Of a stretch of 64,000 bases of DNA, positions 1 through 54,000 are shown in pieces; within the stretch, counting starts at the first letter, position 1, and each line of letters opens with the position of its first letter. The stretch is from positions 1,760,001 to 1,824,000 of the forward strand of contig CBDBMJ010000001.1 of assembly GCA_965207455.1 (NCBI GenBank), written 5' to 3'. The position numbers were made by a program. This DNA is from Bdellovibrionota bacterium. GTDB lineage: Bacteria > Bdellovibrionota > UBA1018 > CAIPTA01 > JAALKR01.

Positions 1-3000
1 ACAACATTTAACCCTTTTTCAAACTGAACAGATTTAAATGATGGCTTGTTGGAATAAATCCCGTGAATCATCTTTTGGATCTCACTATCATGTTATCTTT
101 TATGTCAATTATTCCAGTAATATGTAGCATATCTAAAGTCAAAATAAATCGCTCATATGTTTGTATCGCAGAATTAGCTTTTACTGCTTCCCATAGGTTT
201 GAAAGCAGCACGGGTTTGGAGGTTTGTCGCAGAATCAAAGCACCAGTTCCGAGTAATGCTTCATGTGCAGCAGTATGTTTTGTCGGTAAGATCATGTTTC
301 AAAAATCTCACATAATTCAAACAAGTGTACTAATACAGTCAGACCTGCCGCTTGCCGTTTAAAATCAATGCTACTACCGCCAGAAAACTGAAACATACTT
401 TCAAACAAGTCATCGCCAGTAATACCCTTATCTACTAGACTATCATATTCGTTTCTAAAGCCTTTTTTTAGCCGTTCTGGATAACCCTCATCTAGCTTTG
501 ATTGGTTTTCAATATATTTACCTACTTCACGACTGCGGCTCAAACCCGTTACAATAAGATTGTACGTCGATTTCGTTAAGTTGTTCTTTTTAATTTTTTT
601 CTCAGGTGGCAGTAAGTGAAAAGATGTGTTTGCCTCTATTATGCTTCCTGAAAGGAGTACATTAATGGCAGTCTCGAATTCTGCAAAACCGATATTGATC
701 ACTTCTTTTTCTAAAGAAATCGTAACCCAAGCTTCATGCTTTTTTTTCATTTGACGAAGACCTTCGATTGAATAATCAGGCTCCATCGTATCAACAATAT
801 CGTGATGCGTCCCGCAAAGCAAAATCAAATTATCGTATGTGTTGCGTTTCTCTCGAGAATAGGAACGATCTCCTCTTGGACCATTATCACTGTGCGCAAT
901 AATGTGGGCAATTTTACCAATTTGTTTCGTTTCTCTAGTTTTTTTCTCTTCCAGAATTAATTCTGTACGGCATTCTGGAAAGCTACAACGCCCTGCTGCC
1001 TTTCCATATAACATCTTGATGTCTCCTGCTCGCATTGTTCTTGCCATGATATGAGTACGTTTTTTGTAACATCAATTATATAAGTCATAAAGACAATTCT
1101 AAAAAAGACCACACCTTTAGAGGCTCTATCTCGTCCAAGACGGCTTAAATTTTTCATTTAGGCATAATGGCACAAGGCAATCTTTGGTTATAAGGCAGCC
1201 TTCAAGTGCCGAGCTGCTACTCAATCCGAGGTCGAGCAGTATGGTTATGATTATTAATAATCACATATTGGAGTCATATAATAATCACATTGCGCCATGT
1301 ATTGGGCTCGTTTCATAATAGGACTGTTGTATGTCTTTTCAAAATATACGCAAAGCACAAATCATTTAATTTCAACAAGTTAAGATTGTCACACAACACC
1401 GAACCGACGAACTCGGCTGGATAACTCGCATATAAGCACATTCATAGCTTGGATCCTGAGAATCATTCCGACATTCTTCAAGGAACACACCTGCAATTCA
1501 TAACCTCCTTATTGGATTCCCAACGTTAGATGAGAAAGCTGACTAACCGCCGTTTTTGAATCTTATAGCTCTTCTTGATGCAAGGGCGATGGAAACAGGA
1601 ACTGTAAGCTTAACCTTTGACCAATCGCCATCTTTTGCTGTCTTCTTTGCGCCTGAGGGATCAGGTTTCTTTTTTCTTTTTGCTCCGACTGTACTTTTTT
1701 TTGCCATAACCCTACTTTCCTCTTTATCTAAACTATTGTAAAACAAAACGTAAACACAGACAGTGTTCTCAGAACCTACACTACAATCAACGTTTTACTC
1801 TACCCCTTTTCACCTGCTGCCCGCAAGCGCAGTAATGCTTGAAAACTGTTTTTCATTATCATCTAGTTTACCTATTCTAGTCACTTATTTTATGCGCTGG
1901 CACTACCTCAGAAGCCCCGGCGTGTCCGATAGCACGGTAGTGTACCACCACTGCCAGCAGCCCCGGCCCCAGCCTGATGTCCAAAGTGTTGGGTGTCTTT
2001 TTAAAATATTGCCGAGCATAATCTGTTTATTTTCAGCTAGTTGCGATTTTTGCATTGCTCCGAATCCATGAACTCTGGAGAGTGAGGGGGAGTTTACCTA
2101 TATGGCATAGGGATCTAAGCGCGGCTTTCCTATTTCTCAAAGATATTATCAAGTAAAAACAATTACTTACAGAATTTTTTTATAAATAACTCAATTTTTG
2201 GGTTATTTATGTTTACTTTCTGCCCAATATATTGCATAATTAACTCAATAGTTGAGGTAATTATGCAAAATAAAGCAAAAGACAGGCTTTACAAGTACGC
2301 AAGTCTGCAGGAGGGTTTGTTTACCACAAAGCAAGCTGAGAGGGCTGGTTATAGGCGAAGTCATCATTCCTACCATGTAAGGGCAGGTAATTGGATTCGT
2401 GAAATGAGGGGGCTTTATCGGCTCTCTCATTTTCCTCAAGATGATGAAGATGCTCAGCTTGTTCTTTGGTATTTATGGTCAAGGGATCAAAATGAAATAC
2501 CTCGGGGGGTTTACTCCCATGATACAGCTCTTAGAGTTTATGAGCTCAGCGACATCATGCCTAAAAAGTTGCACATAACAGTTCCAAAAAAATTTCGTCG
2601 TTTCAATAATATACCTGGGATACTCGCTCTTCATAAGACTGATCTTTCAAATTCCCACATTCGTCTGATGAGAGGGTTTGCCGTCACAACTCCCGTTCGG
2701 ACAATTCTTGATCTGATTCATTCAAGGCACTTAGATATTTTTCTAGTAAAGCAAGCCCACGATGAGGCTTTAGAAAAAGGAATGCTGTTGCCAGGGGATG
2801 AGGAAAAAATTAGAGAGGCATTTAATGAAAGATAAAAAGTACCAGGCACCCAGCGCACTGCTTTTCTCACTCTCTAAGCGGCTGGAAAGAGCAAAATCAG
2901 AGGGCACTGACATTCAGCCTCTCTCGATCATTTCTTGTTTGGATCCTGAGAATCATTTCGACATTCTTCAAGGAACACACCTGCAATTCATAACCTCCTT

Positions 3001-51000: not shown

Positions 51001-54000
51001 GGGGTCATTCCTCATACTTAGGAGTTGTAGTTCCATTTGATGGTATTTGGATATTAGGTTTCGTTTCATAGTAGTTGGAGTTCAATTTCAGGGTTTGAGG
51101 AGTTAGTATTGTTATTTTGGGTTTTGGGCGGTGTTATGTTTCCGCTACAAGTCAAGTTCAATCATTCGTTTTATGGGTATTGAGGGAGTTTAAATTTACG
51201 GAGGGCATCACTTTCTCGCTCCCACCTTTCACAAAGACAAAGTTACTTCTTCTCACTGATATGCCTAAGGGTGTGTGTTTGTTCTTTAGGGAGGTGTGGT
51301 TGTGTTTCTTTTATCAGGCTCTGTGGTTTCATTCTTGTTTGGATCCTGGGAATCATTCCGACACTCCCCAAGACCACACCCCCGCTTCTTTCCTGATTAG
51401 GAGTTAAGCGTTTAGCGTGTGTGGTTTGTTTTGGTCCCTTCGACGACTGTTTTATTGACTCCTCTCTGAGAATCATTTCGACATATCTCAAGGAACACAC
51501 TGACGATTCATAACCTTACTTATTGGATTCCCGCACTAAAGATTACAGAAAATAATTATATCTTTCACAAAAAGACATTAAGAAATTTATAAATGAAAAA
51601 ATCAGTTCGACTCGCCGTCGCACATGAGGCACATATCACTTCTGTTGAGATTTGCTCAACTCTTCAATTAAAGAATCGATCATGGCTAGAAAAAATTCTT
51701 TATTTTCCTTTTTTTCACTTGAACTTTTCTTATCAATTATTACATCTCCAATTTTTGATTTCACATTCTCTAAATCTATTTTTATGTTTTTCTTTCTTTC
51801 TTCTAAAGATATTTTCAGCTTCTTGTAGTAATCAGAAGTAAAAAACCTCATCTTTGAATCGCGACAAATAAAATAAGCTAGAATCATTTGAATGGTTTTT
51901 TGTCTTTCAGATTCATCCCGTTTTTGATCCGCCTCATCACGTCGACTGTGTATTTTTTTCTCGCTTTCTAAATTAGACACGAAAACTGGGCTGACGAAAT
52001 AACTAGACACATGAAAGTTCTCTTTACTTTCCATTGCCTCAGCTACAGTGGCTGAAAATTTAAGATGTAAAAATGCGATAAATGTGCGTGAATGTACATC
52101 TGGAAAAATTCCTTCGATTATATTCGAGAGATTCACATTAAACTTGTCTTTATTTTCAAGATCAGCTCTTTGAGTTTTATAATATTCTTCAAAATAATTC
52201 AAAATAAAACAAGAAGAAAAATTATCTTTATTCCCTATCTCTACTGTCCACGTTGGAGGAAAATAATATTTCCAAAATTCATACTCCATTCGATGGTCGG
52301 CCGACAAGATGGGGAACAGAACATCAAAAAAATTTTTCATGTAAATAAAGTACTCTCTTCTCTCTTTTTCATCTTCAGGTAATTTTGATTTTCCTTCACT
52401 TTCAAGCGATATTAATTTTTTTTCAACTTCACCAATGTGCCCCTCAAGCCGTGAGAATAAATATTCTATCTTGTCGTTCCTTGAAACAAGCTTCGTGATT
52501 GAAGATTTAAAAAGTTCTCTGCCAAAAAGGGCCCAACAATTTAAATTTCCGTATTTTCTTTGCCCCTCAAGGCTCTCTTTATTCCAGTTAAGCGATTCTA
52601 ACAATATCTTATGAATTGAATCAGTGCTTCGATTTTTAATATTTTTAGAGTAACCTTTTAATAAGGCGCTTAATCCAGTTGAAATTTTAGCATTTATAGA
52701 AAATTTAATTTTAGATATGAAGAGTTTTGTTATCTCTAATTCGTTGGGGATTATTTCTTTGTGCCAAAAAGAAATCCATGCCTCTGTCGCTTGCCTGTGT
52801 TCTTTAGATTTTATTTTTGAAAAATCTGATGAATCTAAAAATAAAAATTCAAGTTCACCACGTTCCCCTATGGAAAATTTTATTACCTCTTTTAGCATCT
52901 TACAAAACACAATAATCAAATATAAGGCTGCAAAAATAAGCAAAATCTTCAAGCAAACATTAACATCCGTTCCAGAAAAAAATGCAAAAAGGAATATAGA
53001 GGGGATCGATAGTGAAAAAAGATAGCTTACTTGTAAGATGTTTTTATTAAAAATAATTTTATCAAAATCATCATCTTTGTCTGAAATATTTGCATAAGAT
53101 TTTATTAAAAAAGGCATAAAAATTGCAAGAATACCTAAAATAATGGTTTGGAAAAGCGAGGGATCAAGATATTCTAAAAATGAATCTACCTTTTTAAAAA
53201 TTCCATCTGGCTTTAGGCAGATGCATTCACGCCCTGTCATTTAACCTTCAATTCTGACTCATGGCTTGATTTCCAAATTATAGCTCATTCGATTATTTCT
53301 TTATAAATAGATTTAATTCATTTTAAATCAACAACACTTCATCTATTTACTTTATAAACTAAAATAATTTATTTTTCACTATAATTCTATTAAGAAAATA
53401 GATTTTTCAGCAATACACTAAACTGTGTATAATGATCTTTCTCGAAAAAGACTTCTTTAACTTAGGATCATACTACCAAAACTGCCTCTATGAAACTAAG
53501 ATAAAATCACTGCAACCTACTCTTTTCACTGCCATTGCACTCTAAGAGTAGATATGCTTGGCGTATTGCCGGGGTGTTAGAGGAATTTAGTGGTATTTAT
53601 AATATTTAAATTTATCGTTTGATCTTTCTGATGTACCTCAAGAGCACACCCTCGATTCTTTCCGGCTTAGTAGTCAAATTTATAAACGCACCAGTTATTG
53701 TTTTCGTTTCTCTCGCTACCAGCACCAGGGAAACACTCATACTGTTGAGCAAGAACATTCTCTGCTGCTTGAGCAACAACTTTTGATTTATAATAGCCTA
53801 AGATGACCCAATTTTTAAGGTTTGGGTACTGTTTTTCCCAGTATTCTTTGCGACCTTTCGGATCAGTTGTCATGCCTACTCTACAAGCCATATTTAATCA
53901 TTTCCTTTCGACTCAAGTGATACAATATAACTGAACTTTCACGCAGACAAAACTACTTCTTCCCACTGATTGCCCTTCGGGCAAGCGGTCTTTCTTTTGC

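Follow-up and report, generated by a model that had tools for sequence, protein, structure and literature searches.

A Head-to-Tail Array of Anti-Phage Gene Cassettes Bounded by a Co-oriented, Island-Specific Element in an Uncultured Bdellovibrio-like Bacterium

Gene blocks of the island

The window, the whole 64,000-nucleotide stretch analyzed here (C1:1760001–1824000), covers most of an island of an uncultured Bdellovibrio-like bacterium in which about 20 gene cassettes with anti-phage systems follow one another head to tail. Coordinates are those of the window unless they carry the contig prefix C1. The data support a unit composed of a gene block bounded at its 3′ end by a co-oriented, island-specific, non-hairpin element. 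On the minus strand, each unit opens with a leader, which often has its own promoter-like sequence and a ribosome-binding site. The leader is followed by at least one gene, in most units by a whole anti-phage system, and then by an element of ∼70 bp that starts directly past the last stop codon.

From left to right, and on the minus strand unless stated otherwise, the window opens with an ABC-3C/PDC-M68 block (1–1047) that contains MC6 (68–295), PDC-M68A (292–1047), and a 572-aa gene that begins left of the window. It is followed by a block of mixed orientation (1543–2835) with the small, basic S2 gene (1543–1746, minus), a 102-aa open reading frame, and AbiEi (2209–2835, plus), and by a 329-aa gene (3027–4016) and a 150-aa gene (5079–5531), both of unknown family. 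A 10.6-kb block has a payload (6048–15558) that includes MazG_C, Nmad2, a ThsB-like TIR protein, a 5-hmdU kinase-like protein, an Arc-like protein, and a type II CBASS system composed of a 2TM effector, JAB, E1-E2, and two cyclases. Three genes of unknown family (422, 264, and 335 aa; 16851–22523) share their block with an IS21 element (18111–20389, plus). The payload with the 74-aa gene S1 (23747–24024) has a promoter-like TTGACA-16-TATCAT sequence at 24024–23997 and is followed by a block (24307–28365) with a 235-aa gene on the plus strand and a Ppl-like 1024-aa SMC/AAA ATPase and a 78-aa gene on the minus strand. ShosT and ShosA (28720–30241) are bounded exactly by two element copies.

The right half of the island contains 412-aa, Lipase_3 (343-aa), and 395-aa genes together with PD-T7-4 (30876–35564), PDC-S39 with PDC-S06 (36793–41388), and a block (42766–50332) in which a 346-aa orphan gene on the plus strand accompanies Avs2. 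The Avs2 gene (43952–47740, with an N-terminal fragment at 50117–50332) is interrupted by an IS66 element (47780–50087, plus); both it and the IS21 element are ordinary insertions. A low-GC gene for a 534-aa membrane protein of unknown family (51636–53240) precedes the head unit (53667–53969), which consists of an S1 gene (53667–53891) and a leader module and abuts the stop codon (53953) of a sulfatase-family gene at the end of the array. The ShosTA, PDC-S39 and PDC-S06, CBASS, Avs2, and ABC-3C modules named in a preliminary description of this DNA are all recovered, and PD-T7-4 lies in the island too.

Whole systems are found between successive element copies in the cases of ShosTA, PDC-S39 with PDC-S06, and S1. 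The earlier description of the blocks as complete modules does not fit throughout: some blocks hold several systems, as in the inter-site block 5996–16605, where at least three occur with no internal site, and four blocks, of 122–222 nt, are empty. GC content per unit spans 0.317 to 0.451. Leaders are shared between units with different genes. The leaders at 36090–36547 and 51003–51460 are 99.1% identical over 458 nt with different payloads behind them, and CBASS and PD-T7-4 have in common a 195-nt promoter/Shine-Dalgarno module of 86% identity (the proximal leader of PD-T7-4 at 35549–35728 matching 15566–15743 upstream of CBASS), in which homology stops exactly at the Shine-Dalgarno sequence. 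Because leaders share such long homologous modules, duplication and gene conversion could explain much of the likeness.

The repeated element

The element is present in 21 copies (E < 1e-3) in the 2.38-Mb genome, all on the plus strand and all within C1:1746930–1813660. A whole-genome nhmmer search with a profile built from seven copies gives 20 matches at E ≤ 10, 18 of them at E ≤ 3.9e-7, and every one lies on the plus strand inside C1:1746940–1811564. The total is now higher than the preliminary count of 18: searching only the island with a profile of the 50-nt core yields 21 matches at E < 1e-3 and two weaker ones (E = 0.007 and 0.25), all on the plus strand, and adds the degenerate rightmost copy (53622–53660, short B2 type), 7 nt past the stop of the head S1 gene. 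The strongest match outside the island has E = 0.99, and the claim of a real, co-oriented, island-only repeat family stands. The 28-mer that the preliminary description had singled out matches seven window sites with up to three mismatches, all on the plus strand, versus zero expected.

Beyond this genome, blastn against 40 relatives finds zero credible copies, a search of 150 further genomes from the phylum gives nothing but single chance-level matches in three, and metagenome contigs contain zero exact matches to two patterns.

The element is composed of an invariant center, AAGGAACACAC on the plus strand, a gene-side (right) arm, and a leader-side (left) arm. Its conservation has sharp limits. 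Mean pairwise identity is 0.95 at offsets −9 to 0, 0.81–0.89 at +1 to +30, 0.62–0.71 at −29 to −10 and +31 to +40, and at most 0.52 further out. The peak, AAGGAACACAC, lies to the left of the 28-mer, which had been taken for the best conserved part and is absent from 8 of the 21 copies. In those eight, the gene-side arm is of type B2 or B3 in place of the B1 arm seen in the majority; the leader-side arm is of type alpha, beta, or A2.

Copies with alpha and B1 arms lie at 1454–1530, 2944–3020, 4996–5072, 5959–6035, 16569–16645, 24117–24193, 36626–36702 (past the PDC-S39 gene), and, with a short alpha arm, 51464–51540 (past the 534-aa gene). Alpha is combined with B2 at 23401–23448 (B2-type, lacking the 28-mer), at 23623–23740, where B2 reaches the S1 stop codon, at 36429–36547, followed by a plus-strand hairpin and T-run (36544–36570), and at 51342–51460, within the 458-nt leader. 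Beta is combined with B1 at 28617–28693, directly past the ShosT stop (28720), and at 30708–30784, with a B2-like arm in a degenerate copy at 41749–41796, and with a B1/B2 hybrid arm at 41924–41972, which is followed by a remnant of an S1 gene start. All four combinations of alpha or beta with B1 or B2 are present, and the copy alignment contains at least 13 incompatible intervals over about 85 columns. Because arm types assort freely and incompatible intervals are this numerous, sequence has been exchanged among copies. The mosaicism is distributed over the full length of the element, with no focus at a single crossover point.

Copies sit only at block boundaries, which bears out the placement at block 3′ ends described earlier. 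A minus-strand stop codon (open reading frames of at least 60 aa) lies 30–88 nt to the right of 10 of 20 anchors, equivalent to 0–50 nt past the element end. The offset from the anchor is exactly +47 in three cases, including the 329-aa and 150-aa genes, and +53 in two, including the MazG_C gene, and the genes concerned are unrelated. In two S2 cassettes, mutual homology begins at 1534, the outer edge of the element.

No hairpin was found in either strand. Single-stranded DNA folding of 20 copies gives mean z-scores of −0.16 (top) and −0.32 (bottom), the consensus folds at −1.74 and −1.8 kcal/mol, and there are zero covarying pairs. The element matches no Rfam family, and none of the 29 promoter-like and nine terminator-like matches in 22500–37000 falls on the seven copies there. 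Nor does the element have convincing dyad symmetry of the kind seen in the simple sites of tyrosine or serine recombinases. It carries its information as double-stranded DNA and is neither a hairpin nor a structured RNA, and neither a sigma-70 promoter nor an intrinsic terminator. Since it is not a hairpin, it is not an attC site, as the preliminary description had also concluded.

Possible origins of the array

We tentatively prefer a reading in which recombination within the element assembled the cassette array, the elements being its junction sites, homogenized by gene conversion; this is a plausible account, if one short of probable. The array would most likely have grown as circular units, each with one element, integrated into a resident element, similar to the cassettes of integrons or to integrative elements that accrete in tandem. 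Such integration would leave one element per boundary in uniform orientation, and copies would later have been homogenized and shuffled by gene conversion; we infer that units both integrate and are excised. In favor of junction sites are the co-orientation, the boundary-only positions, the sharp conservation, the whole systems between successive copies, the empty units, the varied GC content, the exchange of arms, and the lack of hairpin, promoter, and terminator features. Against them count the missing nearby recombinase, the lack of copies beside the recombinase genes of the genome or in other genomes, the lack of a dyad, the lack of an interpretable excision joint, the blocks with several systems, the shared leaders, and the lack of a crossover hotspot.

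As described previously, no recombinase lies at the island ends: C1:1720001–1824000 encodes none except one phage-type integrase, with housekeeping genes between it and the island, and none of the nine tyrosine recombinases and one large serine recombinase of the genome has an adjacent element copy. Neither the island nor its surroundings encode the joining enzyme, which could work in trans, belong to an unrecognized kind, or have been lost. The contigs of the sole public run with the island show no interpretable excision joint.

A less probable account is that the element is a regulatory or insulating signal at 3′ ends that spread along with the shared leaders when segments were duplicated and converted, with no site-specific recombination. 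As a binding site for a protein or an RNA, it could terminate or insulate self-expressed units or couple them to one regulator. The fixed distance to the upstream stop codon is where a transcript-end signal is expected, and units appear self-expressed, as judged from the promoter-like sequence in the S1 leader and the module shared by CBASS and PD-T7-4. In addition, the island encodes candidate small DNA binders, the Arc-like 66-aa protein and the basic S2 family (three copies), and the predicted gene-sense RNA of the element would carry several GGA/AGG motifs. However, the element has no hairpin, T-run, covariation, or promoter consensus. Rho-utilization sites are C-rich, whereas the gene-sense strand of the element appears G-rich. 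The next start codon lies anywhere between 136 and 1234 nt from the element, which rules out a promoter-proximal operator. The four empty units carry the element with no gene to regulate, and how unrelated gene sets came to adjoin it to within a few nucleotides is left unexplained.

We consider it rather unlikely that the element serves only as portable homology, through which RecA-type recombination deletes and duplicates units and, once DNA has been taken up from kin, swaps them, with no dedicated enzyme. The co-oriented repeats of 70–150 bp would be the substrate, and the fine mosaicism across the full element, the 458-nt leader before two payloads, and the failure to find a recombinase near the island are all consistent with this account. 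However, minimal homology lengths make a 70-bp core at 80–95% identity a poor substrate for general recombination. Donor units would need to carry the element already, leaving the first joining, with stops at +47 or +53, unexplained, as is the strict co-orientation of the 21 copies.

The preliminary description had interpreted the 28-mer, ACGATTCATAA-CCTTAC-TTATTGGATTC, as a dif-type site, at which host XerC and XerD would insert and excise cassettes as in Xer-exploiting elements and pdif modules. The layout CATAA-N6-TTAT (TTATG on the opposite strand) is that of dif, the genome has an XerC-like gene (C1:1058354–1059229) and an XerD-like gene (C1:177608–178570), and the inner portions of dif arms are the best conserved according to PMC2731167. 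However, whereas no similar site had earlier been found at the GC-skew switch, a canonical host dif is present nearby (C1:721619–721646); of its 16 scored arm positions, 15 agree with the B. bacteriovorus dif given in PMC2731167. Against the arms of this host dif, the 28-mer agrees at 13 of 22 positions in the plus orientation and at 12 of 22 when reverse-complemented, and 77 of 360 random genomic ATAA-N6-TTAT sites score as well; the best candidate for an XerD arm in the 28-mer agrees with the host XerD arm at 6 of 11 positions. The “spacer” is 5 nt in three of 13 full copies (1454–1530, 2944–3020, and 4996–5072). With the 28-mer missing from eight copies and the conservation maximum to its left, we regard a dif-like site as very improbable.

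A decayed classical integron, an attC cluster minus its integrase, is scarcely conceivable: the co-oriented cassettes, the repeat at the 3′ ends of open reading frames, the empty cassettes, and a defense payload like that reported for chromosomal integrons (10.1101/2024.07.02.601686 and 10.1101/2024.07.02.601719) fit it, but folding contradicts it on both strands, no R″/R′-type inverted core sites are seen by eye, units reach 10.6 kb with their own promoter-like leaders, and the genome has no integron integrase (best TIGR02249 score of 128.5 bits versus a cutoff of 265).

Comparison with known systems

The island can be compared with several kinds of modular arrays. Xer-dependent elements, such as IMEX phages and islands and the pdif modules of Acinetobacter plasmids, have short bounding sites and use host enzymes in trans, with no recombinase of their own. 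The island is similar in that its modules are bounded by short sites and have no recombinase of their own and its 28-mer has the 11-6-11 layout with ATAA/TTAT inner ends. It differs in that the 28-mer arms are unlike host dif past the eight inner bases and the spacer length is variable. In addition, pdif sites alternate in orientation, whereas the island sites are all co-oriented, and conservation extends over about 70 bp instead of 28 bp.

CIMEs and tycheposon-type islands grow as integrative elements accumulate in tandem at a single att site. As in these, the island has att-like direct repeats at all boundaries, with complete inner sites and some hybrids, and units with no integrase of their own. 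The main differences are that the island has no tRNA or tmRNA target within 30 kb and no integrase at its ends, and that it comprises about 20 units, several of only 122–500 nt. The rAID-1 arrays of Bacteroidales, which are likewise distinct from classical integrons, also contain co-oriented defense or immunity genes whose junctions are repeated; these arrays have a tyrosine recombinase at their start, and none was found at the island.

Sedentary chromosomal integrons share with the island the array in one orientation, the lineage-specific repeat directly 3′ of each open reading frame, the empty units, and a payload that is largely phage defense. Unlike these integrons, with their IntI, attI, and attC, the island has neither IntI nor attI, and its repeat lacks both a hairpin and inverted core sites. 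Integron cassettes are reported to be streamlined (10.1101/2024.07.02.601686), whereas island units reach 10.6 kb and contain full-size multigene systems with their own promoter-like leaders. The earlier characterization of the island as integron-like in layout yet without attC is upheld by its co-oriented units, its 3′-end element, and the lack of fold-back potential. With a joining site of another kind and no joining enzyme seen, the island resembles a gene-capture array that is related to integrons in its layout.

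A repeat of single orientation at the ends of gene blocks

The genome of the window comprises 2.38 Mb in three contigs, with a GC content of 40%. The 28-mer, a stretch read as dif-like in the preliminary description, occurs seven times in the window at ≤3 mismatches, where no occurrence is expected, and always on the + strand. A profile built from the 28-mer copies returned 20 matches in a genome-wide nhmmer search at E ≤ 10, of which 18 reached E ≤ 3.9e-7; every match is on the + strand and falls within C1:1746940-1811564. Scanning only the island (C1:1746930-1813660) with a 50-nt core profile gave 21 places at E < 1e-3 together with two weaker ones, every one in the same orientation, and the best genome-wide profile match outside the island reached only E = 0.99. 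The earlier statement that the co-oriented element is confined to the island is thus borne out, and the repeat is real and far above chance. The core profile also recovered a degenerate, rightmost copy at window 53622-53660 (the head copy), which extends the array to window ~53970. A MITE or IS-derived repeat was rejected: the element is restricted to the island, keeps a single orientation and has no terminal inverted repeats. No Y1 or IS110 transposase was found in the genome. Two further repeats lie in the window, an 87-nt repeat (1170-1256) with nine more genomic copies at 84-92% identity, several of them within ~500 nt of tRNA genes, and a 1.3-kb direct duplication (58976-60286 and 63135-64439; 97% identity) that includes a prepilin peptidase gene.

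The copies were aligned on an invariant AACACA, termed the anchor, with positive offsets running rightward toward the stop codon of the adjoining minus-strand gene. Across the 13 full copies, pairwise identity averages 0.95 at -9 to 0, 0.81-0.89 at +1 to +30, 0.62-0.71 at -29 to -10 and +31 to +40, and at most 0.52 further out, a profile that delimits a functional unit of ~70 nt. Conservation is highest in AAGGAACACAC, which is situated left of the 28-mer. The leader-side arm takes three forms, alpha (GAGAATCATTTCGACA), beta (GAGGATCATGGCGACA) and A2 (a T-run followed by GCGACGG), and so does the gene-side arm: B1, which contains the 28-mer (13 copies), B2 with its relatives (seven copies, including the head copy) and B3 (one copy). 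The dyad typical of simple recombinase core sites was not found in a consensus-like copy searched for it.

Nearly all genes of the island lie on the minus strand. At 10 of 20 anchors, the stop codon of an ORF of ≥60 aa is located 30-88 nt to the right, and exact offsets recur between unrelated genes (+47 three times, +53 twice). The next start codon to the left is found 136 to 1234 nt from the anchor, so the element goes with the 3′ end of the block that it follows and not with the next promoter. The arrangement is of the integron type, that is, co-oriented cassettes with a site directly after the ORF (21/21 copies on the + strand, 10/20 anchors near a stop). The island has the layout of a cassette array, with a double-stranded, asymmetric junction sequence of ~70 bp.

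Payloads and leaders of the array

The payloads found between consecutive copies include ShosT with ShosA, PDC-S39 with PDC-S06, an ABC-3C/PDC-M68 set, PD-T7-4 together with three uncharacterised genes, AbiEi accompanied by one small gene, and a Ppl-like ATPase of 1024 aa accompanied by two. A 534-aa membrane protein, Sel1-repeat genes, and the small genes S1 (74 aa) and S2 (basic) are also found there. A further payload combines Avs2 with a 346-aa orphan. Avs2 (window 43952-50332) is interrupted by an IS66 element (47780-50087), which leaves an N-terminal fragment at 50117-50332; further copies of this IS reside at C1:657199-659573 and C1:1521428-1523855. Four units are empty (122-222 nt). 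The proposal that each block is a complete module holds for whole systems such as ShosT+ShosA and PDC-S39+PDC-S06; a strict fit of one site to one system does not, as the 10.6-kb block at window 5996-16605 carries MazG_C/Nmad2/TIR, a 5-hmdU-kinase-like gene and type II CBASS with no internal site. S1 has three paralogues of 69-85% identity (window 23747-23971 and 53667-53891, and L001:16555-16779). Its homologues in MAGs of Gammaproteobacteria, Chloroflexota and Cloacimonadota sit amid repeated intergenic elements, and these loci are possibly cassette arrays of their own. At window 42073-42366, right beside copy 41960, ~60-nt tandem repeats noted by eye are called as a 97-aa protein by the ORF finder.

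The leaders are mosaics of further common modules and IS debris. A 458-nt leader, 99.1% identical, precedes both PD-T7-4 and Avs2. CBASS and PD-T7-4 have a 195-nt proximal leader in common (86% identity; window 15566-15743 and 35549-35728), and this homology breaks off precisely at the Shine-Dalgarno sequence, which gives the impression of genes exchanged behind one promoter/RBS. The S1 leader contains a strong promoter-like site, TTGACA-16-TATCAT. Judged by these leader modules and the S1 site, the units look self-expressed.

Readings of the junction

The array has one co-oriented copy at each boundary, close to stop codons of genes that are not related to one another, and its most economical origin is recombination within the element. 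Recombination of this kind, following integron or tandem-accretion logic and carried out by a putative enzyme, would place one same-oriented copy at every block boundary. We favor this origin tentatively, holding it at somewhat less than an even chance.

A second reading takes the element as a 3′-end regulatory or insulator signal that goes with the shared leaders. The constant placement after stop codons and the common leader modules are the observations that bear on it, and we regard it as rather unlikely. Within window 22500-37000, 29 promoter-like and nine terminator-like sites were predicted, none on any of the seven copies there; an intrinsic terminator was rejected on this count and for want of a hairpin. 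A small RNA read from the + strand across the B2 copies was likewise rejected, as folding is no better than for shuffled sequences (z -0.41 and -0.96). Rfam gave no match at the gathering score in the window and one chance-level match at E ≤ 1 in 22500-37500, off any copy. The consensus fold of 13 copies is -1.74 kcal/mol on the + strand and -1.8 kcal/mol on the - strand, with no covarying pairs, and 20 copies folded as single-stranded DNA give -2.7 to -14.7 kcal/mol per 100 nt, no better than shuffles (mean z -0.16 and -0.32). By these energies and z-scores, the element is not a hairpin of the attC type, nor is it a structured RNA, in agreement with the preliminary description, which had found no stable hairpin and no likeness to attC. 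Antisense terminator-like sites occur just left of several copies: a + strand hairpin with a T-run at window 36544-36570, antisense to the genes, and further T-runs at ~4930 and ~5895, also in terminator-like sites on the + strand.

The element could also be plain portable homology for general recombination, which we consider improbable.

All four combinations of alpha or beta with B1 or B2 occur, and four-gamete analysis of the 13 full copies yields at least 13 exchange intervals in ~85 columns, along the whole element. Sequence exchange among copies has clearly taken place, to judge from these patterns. A focused crossover point was rejected: incompatibilities are found everywhere along the element, so no hotspot or single crossover point can be claimed. 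One public run contains the island, as contigs, and no RNA run containing it is listed. The contigs break and form joints at the repeats (aligned to window 22300-42200); these are explained by the paralogous copies and speak neither for nor against excision.

A version of the element as an XerC/XerD site, as first proposed, is very improbable. It keeps some standing because the host encodes XerD-like (304 bits) and XerC-like (319 bits) proteins, which score slightly below the equivalog cut-offs and above the tyrosine-recombinase subfamily cut-off; its support ends at the layout. The dif of B. bacteriovorus HD100 is printed in PMC2731167, according to which conservation is strongest in the inner arm parts and in the XerD arm. 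When the genome was scored against this sequence, one match stood out, C1:721619-721646 (AGGTCTGATAA-TATATA-TTATGTAATAA; 15/16 scored arm positions), ~10-20 kb from the cumulative GC-skew maximum (730-744 kb). This site is probably the host chromosomal dif, a correction to the preliminary description, which had found no similar site near the GC-skew switch. The 28-mer agrees with the arms of the host site at 13/22 positions (12/22 as reverse complement), and 77 of 360 genomic ATAA-N6-TTAT sites, the island left out, score ≥13, which limits the dif likeness to the eight inner bases. In the 13 full copies the spacer is 6 nt in ten and 5 nt in three, and the 28-mer is absent from 8/21 copies. Also near the terminus, a near-perfect palindrome of 11-6-11 layout (C1:733679-733706; 10/11 arm positions complementary) lies at the 5′ end of a gene for a 381-aa tyrosine recombinase (ORF C1:732569-733714), an arrangement reminiscent of single-recombinase XerS/XerH systems.

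That the island is a decayed integron or CALIN is barely credible, since attC fold-back and an IntI beside the array are both absent.

The search for an enzyme and comparison with integrons

For recombination within the element, an enzyme was sought in and around the array. Recombinase families and the Phage_integrase domain were absent from the 92 ORFs of C1:1740001-1824000, and no recombinase was found among 20 uncharacterised island proteins (NCBIfam, PHROGs). Between the island and an integrase located 21 kb to its left lie genes for ribosomal proteins, tRNA synthetase and LPS export, and the earlier observation that neither island end carries a recombinase gene stands. The array ends show no tRNA or tmRNA target, the nearest tRNA being at C1:1713427. 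Tandemly accreted integrative elements were rejected because neither end has an integrase or such a target, and a tRNA-derived att site because the island has no tRNA in its vicinity and the profile detects nothing alike at other places. The genome encodes nine tyrosine recombinases and one large serine recombinase, none with a copy of the element nearby. None of the nine is an integron integrase (best TIGR02249 score 128.5 bits vs a cut-off of 265). The large serine recombinase gene (C1:102294-104072) has, 1.2 kb upstream, a second occurrence of a 139-nt stretch that adjoins copy C1:1758323; this stretch may belong to a short ORF similar to a transposase N-terminus. No link to the element was drawn from it, and the lead was rejected. 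Contig C2, which is 5.6 kb long and encodes a tyrosine recombinase, has nothing in common with the island and was rejected as a partner.

The 346-aa gene (window 42766-43803, + strand) adjoins two odd copies (41785 and 41960) and is divergent like intI, and for this position it was tested as a hidden recombinase. Its product belongs to none of the families in Pfam, NCBIfam or PHROG and matches no PDB sequence, and a confident AF2 model of it (pLDDT 82.9, pTM 0.84) found no counterpart among PDB folds at E ≤ 0.001. The family is sporadic, with at least 266 loci in many bacterial and some archaeal phyla, a spread typical of cargo, and the closest homologue, in Halobacteriovorax, sits at a locus without a repeat array. 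On these grounds the gene was rejected as the enzyme; the protein is probably an undescribed single-gene defence protein.

Among 40 relatives searched with blastn, the element gave three short chance matches in two genomes and nothing else. In another 150 genomes of the phylum, a sequence-only covariance model produced single matches at E 0.003-0.006 in three, approximately chance. Two exact degenerate patterns had 0 and 0 matches in metagenome contigs, and a sulfatase flank search in five relatives found nothing.

Defence genes in integrons have already been published, as reported in 10.1101/2024.07.02.601686, 10.1101/2024.07.02.601719 and PMC12614218. In the present island, the units of assembly are visible: ~20 units with a common junction element that lies no more than a few bases from the last stop codon, some of which units also have a common promoter/RBS module ending at the Shine-Dalgarno sequence. 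Descriptions of defence islands usually portray loose clusters, their assembly being unexplained. If the junctions serve as a shared signal for transcript ends or insulation, the island would be a rare example of defence genes wired as one regulon. If they are recombination sites, integron-like stockpiling of defence genes would have arisen with a different site chemistry, full-size multi-gene systems could be handled, and the element would be a direct handle for identifying the enzyme, with the ten recombinases of the host as candidates. Unlike classical integron cassettes, the island units look self-expressed. It is conceivable, if doubtful, that the array represents a new gene-capture platform, in which a trans-acting or unrecognised recombinase would act on an asymmetric double-stranded site of ~70 bp without hairpin or dyad and stack whole self-expressed anti-phage systems (up to ~10 kb) head to tail: functionally an integron made from different parts, without the cassette size limit of attC.
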